Of a DNA stretch of 64,000 nt, positions 31,360 through 33,755 are shown in pieces (positions within the stretch are counted from its first letter, which is position 1; each line of letters starts with the position of its first letter). Source of the stretch: an uncultured Candidatus Saccharibacteria bacterium (GTDB lineage Bacteria; Patescibacteriota; Minisyncoccia; Phycocordibacterales; DATDWN01). The notes under the pieces are model-generated. The model saw only the letters and a list, made by a program, of their open reading frames with translations. It made no database searches and was not told the origin of the DNA. The translations under genes were made by a program, and so were the position numbers. The DNA is taken from the NCBI GenBank assembly GCA_964551495.1, contig CAZKCA010000002.1, positions 19,648 to 83,647 of the forward strand. The letters run 5' to 3'.

Positions 31360-31803
31360 TCATTTTCTCACCTTCAATAAAAAGTCGAGAGCGTCCATTA
31401 CGGCCTTGAATTTTTCAAGTGAACAAGACCTTACAAAATCACCCTGTTCTATATTTTCAAAAAAAGATAAAACTTTACTTATAGAATACAGATGATTATC
31501 ATAAAAACCTTCTTTGTTCCTAATGTTCATATTCTTATGAATACTTTTTAGTTTTTTATGATAGATTTTAATTAGTCTAACAAGACATTTATATTCTTCT
31601 CCTCCGTGGATAAAATAAGGTTTATTGCCTATAATAAAATCCACCTCTGCTTCATTTCTAATAAACAAGATTAGAAGCTTTATCTTTTTTAGATCTTCCT
31701 TAGATTCTGTTATCTTTTTCAGCGGATCATAATTAGAATCTCTAATCATTACTAACATTAAAAGACAGAGAACTAAAACAAAGAAAACCACAATGAAGAA
31801 CAT
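31360..31803 (-). CDS. hypothetical membrane-anchored protein
   Basis: 147-aa ORF with an N-terminal hydrophobic helix and AT-rich native codon usage. Confidence 0.45.
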   Translation of the reverse strand: MFFIVVFFVLVLCLLMLVMIRDSNYDPLKKITESKEDLKKIKLLILFIRNEAEVDFIIGNKPYFIHGGEEYKCLVRLIKIYHKKLKSIHKNMNIRNKEGFYDNHLYSISKVLSFFENIEQGDFVRSCSLEKFKAVMDALDFLLKVRK

Positions 31804-32202: not shown

Positions 32203-32241
32203 AAAAATAAACACAGCATATTTTTGCTGTGTTTATTTTTT
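32203..32241 (+). terminator. perfect palindromic terminator
   Basis: AAAAATAAACACAGCA-TATTTT-TGCTGTGTTTATTTTTT. Confidence 0.6.
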
Positions 32242-32763
32242 GATACCTAAAATAAAGGGTAGGGGACTTCCCTATTGGGAATAGAAAATTAGTCACTAAA
32301 TCTTTTTATGAGATAAAAGATATTTGACGTATTAGGGGAATAGATAAATATACACGATAAACTAATAATCATAATAAAAATAAACAAATTACATTGAACA
32401 AATTGTTTAAAAGATCAATAAATTATTTTAATAGATTTAAAGAACTTTCTCTCTTATATAGAGTGACCAAAGATATATTGTGCGACGTATAATGTATTTA
32501 TTCCCCTCTGTAAATAAAGACCTTAAATGCAAACTTGAAAATAAAAAATAAATGGAAAAACTCCCTACCCTGTGGTAGTATGGTCCTCGGAGGAATGGAG
32601 AAATGCAGAACAACTACTTTGATCCCCTGGAATTTGAAAAAGGCGGCCGACTTATATCAAATTAATGATTGTTATAATTATTATTTCAATAATACCCCTA
32701 ATGATCTTCGTACAATCTTCTATGAAGTCACTTAGGCAAGACCAGAACAAAGTAAGTTGGATA

Positions 32764-33027
32764 ATGGAAACTAAATTAGAACAAATTGGGCCCTACCACT
32801 ACGTAGGATATGCCAAAGAAAACGGAAAAGAAGGTATCCGAGTTGTTACAATCAACTTAGTAGATTGTCCTAAAGAGTTTAAGTTTCGATTTCCTAAAAA
32901 AGGAGATTTTGTCCGTGTTGAACTTTACAAACAAGAAGAAATAGCAGAGACAAAATCTGGAGACCTTATACTCACCCTTCCTAAAGATTTTATAAAAATG
33001 GGAATACTAGATCCTCAATGTAAATGA
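32764..33027 (+). CDS. hypothetical 87-aa protein (weak AbrB/MazE-like swapped-hairpin motif near C-terminus); longer ORF from 32665 possible
   Basis: METKLEQIGPYHYVGYAKENGKEGIRVVTINLVD...SGDLILTLPKDFIKMGILDPQCK. The motif G-x-hydrophobic-I/L-P-K-x-hydrophobic-x-x-x-G-I resembles AbrB-N. This is low-confidence pattern recognition only. Confidence 0.3.
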   Translation: METKLEQIGPYHYVGYAKENGKEGIRVVTINLVDCPKEFKFRFPKKGDFVRVELYKQEEIAETKSGDLILTLPKDFIKMGILDPQCK

Positions 33028-33037
33028 CACCAAACTC

Positions 33038-33060
33038 AAAGCCCCTAATCGGGGCTTTTC
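33038..33060 (+). terminator. intrinsic terminator
   Basis: AAAGCCCC-TAAT-CGGGGCTTTTCTTT. Confidence 0.6.
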
Positions 33061-33101
33061 TTTATTCAAAAAATGTGATAATTTTTTGTTTGGAGGCGCC
33101 G

Positions 33102-33200
33102 GTGACATTAAAAGAATTGGCGATCGGTTGTCTGACTGGTCTTGCTGTTTTTTCAATAATGACAGCGGCTAGCATAATGTTTTTTCTGAAATGGAGGTGA
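33102..33200 (+). CDS. tiny hydrophobic peptide ORF (32 codons, GTG start)
   Basis: GGAGG 5 nt upstream of GTG. Translates to (M/V)TLKELAIGCLTGLAVFSIMTAASIMFFLKWR, a single predicted TM helix. An extended -10-like TGTGATAAT sits 20 nt upstream of the SD. Confidence 0.4.
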   Translation: MTLKELAIGCLTGLAVFSIMTAASIMFFLKWR

Positions 33201-33205
33201 CAGGC

Positions 33206-33274
33206 ATGTTTTCCAACGAACAAACCGTTTATGCACTCATTGTCCTTGCCTGGGCAATAACATTTCTTTTCTAA
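33206..33274 (+). CDS. tiny hydrophobic peptide ORF (22 codons)
   Basis: ATG 8 nt after GGAGG, which overlaps the stop of the preceding sORF. Translates to MFSNEQTVYALIVLAWAITFLF. An intrinsic terminator follows immediately. Confidence 0.4.
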   Translation: MFSNEQTVYALIVLAWAITFLF

Positions 33275-33284
33275 CCCACAACAA

Positions 33285-33304
33285 AAGCCCCTTTCGGGGC
33301 TTTT
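33285..33304 (+). terminator. intrinsic terminator
   Basis: AAAAGCCCC-TTTC-GGGGCTTTT. Confidence 0.6.
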
Positions 33305-33314
33305 ATCGTGAATA

Positions 33315-33755
33315 TTATTTATTCATAGCAAGAGCGGACTCATATTTACCCCAACAAGCTTTGGATGAAATCCAAGGCTGAGTTCCCTGCTTTTCATACA
33401 ATTTTCTTGCATAAGCAGTGTTACCTTCTATGGAATAAATATTATAATTCTCTTTTTCTGCTGTCTCTAAGTGGTAATACTCGTTTATTTGCATTACACC
33501 CACGTCAGCATTATTTACTTTTCCTCTATGAACTTCTCCTTTGGAGTCTAGATGTCTAAATGTTGATTCACATTTAGCAATCTCAATCATAATCGGAATA
33601 TCTGAGAAGTACTGTCTAATATACTGTTCAGTACTCATTAATTTTTCAACGTCCTTCTTTGAAACTTCTCTCACTAACTGAGGCTTTTGTTCTGGTATTT
33701 CGGTTACAGTAACTGGACTGTTAATACCTGATATACTTCCCAAAGCCATAAACAA
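33315..33755 (-). CDS. lysozyme-like / lytic-transglycosylase-like peptidoglycan hydrolase (secreted; N-terminus probably extends a few codons upstream)
   Basis: IAKCESTFRHLD...NNADVGVMQINEYYH...GTQPWISSKACW matches the CES...D.G.MQIN...PW...C pattern of lysozyme-like/SLT-like domains. The in-frame upstream sequence encodes a hydrophobic LILQFTVVSLF segment resembling a signal peptide, but no canonical start was found. Confidence 0.55.
   Translation of the reverse strand: MFMALGSISGINSPVTVTEIPEQKPQLVREVSKKDVEKLMSTEQYIRQYFSDIPIMIEIAKCESTFRHLDSKGEVHRGKVNNADVGVMQINEYYHLETAEKENYNIYSIEGNTAYARKLYEKQGTQPWISSKACWGKYESALAMNK

Follow-up and report, generated by a model that had tools for sequence, protein, structure and literature searches.

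The DNA analysed here, hereafter the window, is a stretch of 64,000 nucleotides (nt) from contig CAZKCA010000002.1 (positions 19,648 to 83,647) of an uncultured bacterium of the Patescibacteriota. Between its positions 33030 and 33330 lies a compact cassette composed of an intrinsic terminator (T1), a -10-like box, two tandem open reading frames (ORFs) of 32 and 22 codons, named pep1 and pep2, each with a GGAGG Shine-Dalgarno (SD) sequence, and a second terminator (T2). All of these elements had been listed in an initial annotation of the window, and all of them are present. A gene designated p120 precedes the cassette. The lysozyme-like gene and then the gene for a 1073-amino-acid (aa) PA14-domain protein follow, in keeping with the lysozyme-like and giant adhesin neighbours that had been claimed. 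The G+C content from T1 to T2, both terminators included (33030-33330), is 0.40 compared with about 0.31 for the genome, which bears out the description of the segment as GC-anomalous. The features of the locus are listed in Table 1.

Table 1. Features of the cassette locus, in window coordinates.
Feature	Position	Strand	Description
Putative dif (Xer) site	32461-32488	+	GAGTGACCAAA-GATATA-TTGTGCGACGT; left border of the variable slot with p120 and the cassette
20-codon ORF	32603-32665	+	Frameshifted N-terminal part of the p120 gene in the window strain, from comparison with strains L161 and L162
p120	32665-33027	+	N-terminal transmembrane anchor, small beta-rich domain and two conserved Cys, from homologues
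T1	33038-33058 (stem)	+	Terminator of p120; GC-rich hairpin with T-tail
-10-like box	33074-33082	+	TGTGATAAT; contains GATAAT
SD of pep1	33092-33096	+	GGAGG, 5 nt ahead of the GTG at 33102
pep1	33102-33200	+	32-aa ORF, (M)TLKELAIGCLTGLAVFSIMTAASIMFFLKWR; predicted single-pass membrane protein with a homologue in contig L081
SD of pep2	33193-33197	+	GGAGG within the last two pep1 codons, just before the TGA
pep2	33206-33274	+	22-aa hydrophobic ORF, MFSNEQTVYALIVLAWAITFLF; ATG 8 nt after the SD
T2	33283-33304	.	AAAAGCCCC-TTTC-GGGGCTTTT; bidirectional terminator, 9-bp GC-rich stem (RNA fold)
Lysozyme-like gene	33315-33755	-	146 aa; last gene of the right replichore, conserved across Parcubacteria

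T1 is a diverged direct-repeat partner of T2, and the pair is spaced 245 nt apart. The hairpin AGCCCC-N3-8-GGGGCT occurs only at T1 and T2 in the 64 kb (0 expected), which marks the two terminators as a related repeat pair. A simple terminator scan overlooked T2, whose U-tract forms part of its stem, and RNA folding revealed it. In the fold, T2 reads as a terminator both ways and is common to the cassette and the convergent lysozyme-like gene. The unit including its terminators folds at z = -4.7, a value owed to T1 and T2, and the RNA between them has no unusual structure (z = -1.18 in the window and +0.51 in contig L081, described below). The GATAAT hexamer of the -10-like box is kept in all four lineages compared, the extended TG occurs in the window strain only, and no -35 element was found for this box. 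Hydrophobic ORFs of 18-50 aa with GGAGG 4-10 nt upstream number five in the window against 0.57 ± 0.72 in shuffled sequences (about 9-fold); three of these are inside long genes, leaving pep1 and pep2 as the only intergenic ones. Both products had been described as single-helix membrane peptides. Hydropathy predicts one helix each, with Kyte-Doolittle maxima of 2.2 for pep1 and 2.5 for pep2, but the hydrophobic run of pep2 extends over just about 15 residues, less than a full membrane span would take.

A related cassette was found in the metagenomic contig L081, whose lysozyme-like protein shares 90% identity with that of the window. The order in L081 is a dif-like site, a p120 homologue, a terminator, GATAAT, two SD-preceded tiny hydrophobic ORFs joined by an ATGA overlap, and a terminator, and the G+C content of this cassette is ordinary (0.31). 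Four further contigs of the L081 lineage are 100% identical and add no information. The second ORF of L081, pepB (MTVKEISIGCLIPTFVIVLALILARSIMYFLKQ), aligns to pep1 with a score of 78 versus 19.2 ± 3.9 in composition-preserving shuffles (z = 14.9). In frame, the proportions of synonymous (pS) and non-synonymous (pN) differences in this alignment are 0.78 and 0.34 (pN/pS = 0.43), and in the two other frames they are 0.36-0.38 and 0.44-0.45 (pN/pS >1). Nine synonymous codon differences occur among the 17 conserved residues. The L081 homologue begins with ATG at the residue matching the window GTG, confirming the GTG start of pep1. Four closer strains (L161, L162, L165, and L166) were found via the upstream protein and the lysozyme-like protein; within this clade pep1 has four synonymous changes and one S-to-A change (P = 0.013 for at most one non-synonymous change). 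Judged by the L081 homology together with these synonymous-biased changes, pep1 is a genuine protein under purifying selection. Its conservation sits at the helix ends, in a polar N-terminus (MT-KE--IGCL) and a basic C-terminus (SIM-FLK), and the hydrophobic core is variable, suggesting interfacial contacts rather than a specific core.

No family match was obtained for pep1, pep2, the L081 peptides, or p120 in Pfam, NCBIfam, PADLOC, PHROGs, or PDB sequences. A phmmer search of pep1 against 1.84 billion representative proteins returned one spurious match to a protein with several transmembrane segments and nothing else. Exact look-up of seven products in a 15-billion-protein collection found none recorded, pep1 and pep2 being absent with their true start. 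When pep1, pep2, pepB, the other L081 peptide (pepA), and the L001 peptide were compared as possible paralogues, only the pep1-pepB pair was significant (p = 0.02-0.5 against shuffles for the others). A lipoprotein reading of AIGC in pep1 was rejected, as it would leave only nine residues ahead of the Cys and so no real signal-peptide h-region. A type IV pilin-like reading of MTLKE (Glu5) is disfavoured by the lack of a leader and of Gly-1 and by a Lys at position 4.

The second ORF, pep2, is also constrained. The position of its SD inside the last codons of pep1 implies translational coupling, as far as gene layout can tell. In L162, a synonymous AGG-to-AGA change in pep1 weakens the pep2 SD to GGAGA and makes an ATGA overlap start. 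Relative to L166, the 69 nt of pep2 carry 0 substitutions against 5.1 predicted from the neutral-proxy rate of about 7.5% (P = 0.006), and pep1 and pep2 together have 3 versus 12.5 expected (P = 0.0015). The flanks of the window and L166 share 92.4% (intergenic), 89.4% (PA14 gene), and 89.3% (p120) identity. pep1 differs at three sites and pep2 at none; the other substitutions in the cassette are located in the tail of T1, the promoter, the SD spacer, the 5 nt between the two cistrons, and the loop of T2. The near-identity of the cassette in L161 was considered as a possible recombination mosaic and this was rejected: L166 differs on both sides and in the non-coding parts of the cassette, and constraint is therefore preferred over a mosaic. 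Overall, pep2 is under constraint and is arranged like a coupled cistron, and its coding status is only probable. The initial annotation had proposed examining whether the two-ORF arrangement is conserved in related genomes. The layout does recur in L081 with a homologous pep1, but pep2 is replaced by a different partner: pepA lies upstream of the pep1 homologue, and pep2 lies downstream of pep1 in the window. As a separate observation, only the loop of T2 differs in L166 (33292-33295, TTTC in the window versus its reverse complement GAAA, with the same stem), which looks like a hairpin-loop inversion.

The upstream gene p120 is decaying in some strains. Only four homologues are known (P0002-P0005); the window protein shares 42% identity with the L081 version, and the gene lies upstream of the cassette in both pep1-bearing lineages. 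Its AlphaFold2 model is poor (predicted local distance difference test score of 64) and too weak for a fold search. The same start gives one continuous p120 ORF of 146 or 141 aa in L161 and L162, where the gene is intact. The window copy carries an indel that shifts the frame, with a restart possible at the overlapping TAATG, a 52-nt deletion leaves 53 aa in L165, and a 41-aa stump is found in L001. The closest species-level genome, L001, is collinear with the window to the left and to the right. T1, pep1, pep2, and most of the 120-aa ORF are missing from it, and its sequence resumes after the stump at T2, which is identical over 33 nt. In every cassette-bearing strain, including those with damaged p120, pep1 and pep2 are intact. 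That the small ORFs stay intact while p120 decays indicates that the cassette is kept for its own sake, and this comparison of strains shows it to be maintained independently of p120. By the same comparison, p120 is dispensable and is the only gene linked to the cassette. Near-identical strains are thus polymorphic for the inactivating lesions of p120, and the region of its transmembrane anchor is hypervariable and has indels. The p120 5' leader contains ACTCCCTACCCTGTGGTAGTAT (32560-32581, hairpin CTACC-CTGT-GGTAG), which is identical in L081; L001 has a similar sequence in which the pairing is lost.

The setting of the cassette, which the initial annotation had not recognised, is a plastic slot beside a dif-like terminus site. 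This site is a 28-bp element with the consensus nnGTCGCAAAA-GATATA-TTGTGCGACRY (window copy GAGTGACCAAAGATATATTGTGCGACGT). It has an 11-6-11 architecture, in which the right arm is invariant and the left arm is variable and partly palindromic. Of 160 related Parcubacteria loci, more than 100 carry the 18-nt core AAAGATATATTGTGCGAC (32469-32486) without a mismatch, even where the lysozyme-like protein is just 45% identical. The site is single in the window, with a position weight matrix score of 40 out of 45.9 and no other site reaching 8. ORFs converge on it from either side (50/50 and 49/50 loci), the GC skew flips across it in 45/50 loci on each side, and the cumulative skew of the window peaks at 31-33 kb, matching its position. 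A reading of the conserved upstream stretch as a riboswitch or small RNA leader was rejected, as only about 28 nt are conserved, RNAalifold gave no consensus structure, and Rfam gave no match at the gathering threshold in the window or 11 relatives (chance-level matches only at E ≤ 10). The terminus signature, together with the prophage flanks described below, points to dif rather than an RNA leader, and the 28-mer is probably a dif (Xer) site marking the replication terminus. No published description of it was found in the literature searched. The site and the lysozyme-like gene are separated by 12 to 4,072 nt (median 174, 113 loci), an interval that holds varied cargo. Across these loci, comparison shows the p120 and small-ORF module as one lineage-specific cargo in a plastic slot bounded by the dif-like site and the final gene of the replichore, and the cassette arrived together with p120.

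Inoviruses have been reported in hosts of the candidate phyla radiation (CPR) (PMC6813254). The exact dif-like core is carried by 27 IMG/VR contigs (L167-L193). Two directly oriented copies are 5.4 kb apart in L185 (2201-7631) and L189 (2068-7517), and bracket a Zot-type ATPase (PF05707), a G2P-type rolling-circle replication (RCR) Rep, a DUF2726 protein, and coat-like proteins of 58 and 45 aa. Zot and Rep between two site copies are hallmarks of a filamentous prophage integrated at the dif-like site in the manner of integrative mobile elements exploiting Xer (IMEX). The dif-like site may be the more useful by-product of this analysis: marking the replication terminus across Parcubacteria and exploited by inovirus-like prophages, it could orient fragmented CPR assemblies and link phages to hosts. 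A perfect TTGACA-N17-TAnAAT promoter follows the core site in many of the 27 viral contigs.

The initial annotation had offered three functional readings: a type I toxin locus, a two-peptide bacteriocin, and small regulatory membrane proteins. Of the last, the small membrane proteins hold up well, in view of the selection on pep1 and the good ribosome-binding site on both ORFs, and a regulatory role is only conjectural; the other two failed on the features compared. We favour, with about an even chance of its being right, a small self-contained operon of lineage-specific small membrane proteins that would act as integral-membrane partners or modulators. Transcription would start from the GATAAT box after T1, or come from read-through of T1, and would end at the bidirectional T2. 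pep1 would be translated from its strong SD and pep2 through coupling to pep1. The pep1 product would insert as a single-pass helix, most likely N-out/C-in, with the basic C-terminus inside according to the positive-inside rule. The peptides would then act in the cell's own membrane as small partners or modulators, rather than as a toxin-antitoxin pair or an exported bacteriocin.

Known bacterial small membrane proteins of at most 50 aa, such as AcrZ, KdpF, CydX, and MgtS, provide the closest parallel. They share with the cassette a length of 20-50 codons, one hydrophobic helix, and an SD and start of their own; they are routinely missed by gene callers, are conserved at the helix ends, and are under purifying selection, as is pep1 here. 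pep1 is an ORF of at most 50 codons that appears to be translated and selected, with a single transmembrane helix predicted from hydropathy. The cassette has no sequence relationship to AcrZ, KdpF, CydX, or MgtS, and no adjacent gene for a large membrane complex that its products could serve. It also differs from known small membrane proteins in that the pep1 family is limited to a narrow CPR clade and its partner ORF is swapped between lineages. Judged from these comparisons, the locus is real and selected, is without known relatives, and belongs among the bacterial small membrane proteins rather than to a new type of system. Annotations of uncultured bacteria mostly overlook small proteins. 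The cassette provides a clean case, by sequence comparison, of a selected 32-aa membrane protein in a minimal CPR genome while the larger adjacent gene decays, and a function, if found, would extend what little is known of CPR envelope biology.

Several points weigh against the favoured operon of membrane modulators. pep1 is known from two diverged lineages only, and the test for selection consists of one deep comparison and a few strain-level changes. No partner complex or regulatory target could be identified. The partner ORF differs by lineage, so that the pair as such, on the present comparison, is not conserved. The -10 call, like the search for antisense promoters, uses an E. coli-type consensus that may not be that of CPR bacteria, which bears on the promoter assignment. 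A membrane-damaging role may also be compatible with the sequence. Further doubts concern pep2. No diverged pep2 homologue was found in L081 or elsewhere, its hydrophobic run is short, and the absence of synonymous changes is not significant by itself (P = 0.13 at the synonymous rate of the lysozyme gene); RNA-level or terminator-proximal constraint could also explain its conservation. These doubts, together with the reduction of its SD to GGAGA in L162, feed a narrower account in which pep1 is the sole gene and pep2 is a chance ORF in its 3' untranslated region (UTR), conserved through terminator-proximal RNA or through the limited divergence sampled. We regard this account as rather unlikely. 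GGAGG stands 8 nt before the pep2 ATG, the coupling recurs as an ATGA overlap in L081 and arises anew in L162, pep2 is free of substitutions while the 5-nt spacer and the T2 loop vary, and such ORFs are rare by chance.

The main functional rival is a toxin-like role, which we consider unlikely. Under this explanation, the cassette would be a type I toxin-antitoxin-like or addiction module, in which pep1 and/or pep2 would depolarise the membrane and be checked by an antisense RNA, arising from read-through of the lysozyme-like gene or from an unrecognised promoter, and the module would stabilise the dif-adjacent segment. Both peptides are small (<60 aa) and hydrophobic, and the size, hydrophobicity, and aromatic/basic C-terminus (FFLKWR) broadly resemble those of Ldr, Fst, and TisB-type toxins. 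With type I toxins in general (Ldr, Fst, TisB, Ibs, and ShoB), the cassette shares the length, the hydrophobic helix, such a C-terminus, and a place in a variable chromosomal region, and it persists as the neighbouring p120 decays and is convergent with another gene over a bidirectional terminator. However, the search for an antisense RNA promoter on the opposite strand, as the initial annotation had suggested, found none matching TATAAT at 5/6 or better in the window cassette and none conserved in L161, L162, and L081. Only about 10 nt separate the GATAAT box from the pep1 SD, so that the leader would be short, with a strong GGAGG exposed at ideal spacing. Type I toxin loci differ in having an antisense RNA gene, a long structured 5'-UTR, and a sequestered SD, and two coupled ORFs are atypical of the class. 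The unremarkable fold of the RNA between the terminators and the lack of any match in toxin or defence libraries point the same way. Export of the peptides, as a leaderless or two-peptide bacteriocin or as host-directed effectors of an episymbiont, is the least probable explanation of those weighed here. The cassette does share with class IIb and leaderless bacteriocins a pair of neighbouring peptide genes (products of about 20-35 aa) within a single transcription unit, the window pep1 has a G9xxxG13 motif, and genes for an M23 peptidase, the lysozyme-like protein, and the PA14 adhesin-like protein are nearby. Against this, there is no double-glycine leader, as neither peptide has GG and the L081 homology begins at residue 1; GxxxG is not kept in L081 (G9xxxP13) and is absent from pep2; and pep2 is extremely hydrophobic with a net negative charge, in contrast to the cationic amphipathic character of these bacteriocins. 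Among annotated ORFs of at least 90 aa within ±10 kb, no immunity, ABC-transporter, or C39-peptidase gene was found; these ORFs either have housekeeping functions or gave no Pfam match at the thresholds applied, and none matches a transporter family. Relatives that lack the cassette also keep the hydrolase and adhesin genes. A holin was also rejected: neither peptide is large enough, and the lysozyme-like gene, which is convergent, is conserved where the cassette is absent.

The location beside the dif-like site raises the question of a mobile origin, which would be compatible with either a modulator or a toxin-like role. The cassette could be remnant or domesticated cargo of an Xer-exploiting element (IMEX, e.g., a filamentous phage), with ORFs derived from virion-membrane or superinfection-exclusion genes. 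The module directly adjoins the site and is an indel relative to most relatives; in related hosts, inovirus-like prophages with Zot and G2P-type Rep use this very site for integration, have a site copy on either flank, and also encode small proteins of polar-transmembrane-basic build. The unique T1/T2 repeat pair and the elevated G+C content of the cassette fit such an origin as well, and g7p and g9p of phage Ff (33 and 32 aa) resemble pep1 and pep2 in being encoded in tandem by coupled hydrophobic ORFs of about 30 aa that lack signal peptides. This origin nevertheless appears quite improbable, and the cassette as an IMEX remnant is unsupported. Neither a second dif site nor a pseudo dif site occurs in the 64-kb window, the slot lacks inovirus hallmark genes (Zot/pI ATPase and RCR Rep), and pep1, pep2, and p120 are dissimilar to the 27 dif-bearing viral contigs, GenBank phages, and plasmids. 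Nor are pep1 and pep2 related to the small coat-like proteins encoded by the CPR inovirus-like elements examined, and the L081 cassette has ordinary G+C content. A more elaborate version, in which the slot captures Xer-mobilised cargo and the cassette and p120 have been domesticated so that the peptides block or modulate filamentous phages using the same site (superinfection exclusion), is very improbable.

The window belongs to a Parcubacteria-type CPR genome. Relatives of the adjacent 146-aa lysozyme-like gene are all Patescibacteria, of the Parcubacteria / Paceibacterota / Zambryskibacteria type. The lysozyme-like profile matches c-type lysozyme 2fbd with E = 0.021, and its invariant CES...GVMQINEYYH resembles the catalytic motif of lysozyme. 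This gene is preceded, at 33883-33855 (minus strand), by a perfect extended sigma-70-type promoter (TTGACA-17-TATAAT with upstream TG, 12/12), suggesting that at least some genes of this genome follow E. coli-like promoter rules. The flanks have housekeeping genes and encode ScpAB, MraY, FtsW, MurG, GluRS, and the M23 peptidase on one side, and the PA14 protein, DnaJ, DnaK, and GrpE on the other.

Some minor features were observed on the far side of the dif-like site. The segment 31433-31792, within a 147-aa ORF (31360-31803, minus strand) that has no family match, is absent in L162 and L081 and represents a second strain-specific indel; in L081, the YgaP-like (DUF2892) gene comes straight after the M23 peptidase gene. 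The sequence GGTAGGGGACTTCCC (32258-32272) lies just past the terminator, bidirectional, of the YgaP-like gene, and approximately 25 loci have it about 210 nt upstream of their dif-like site. The minus strand of 32205-32282 has a weak RsaE/RoxS-like Rfam match (33 bits versus a gathering threshold of 79, E = 0.0025) and may represent a C-rich small RNA. In many more distant Parcubacteria, the last gene across the dif-like site encodes a conserved membrane protein of about 85 aa (…GFIQIILIVVGALVLLKYVYDIDVVGFLTQGRFKELLDQFY…), found in L029-L064 and other loci about 200-500 nt from the stop codon of the lysozyme-like gene.

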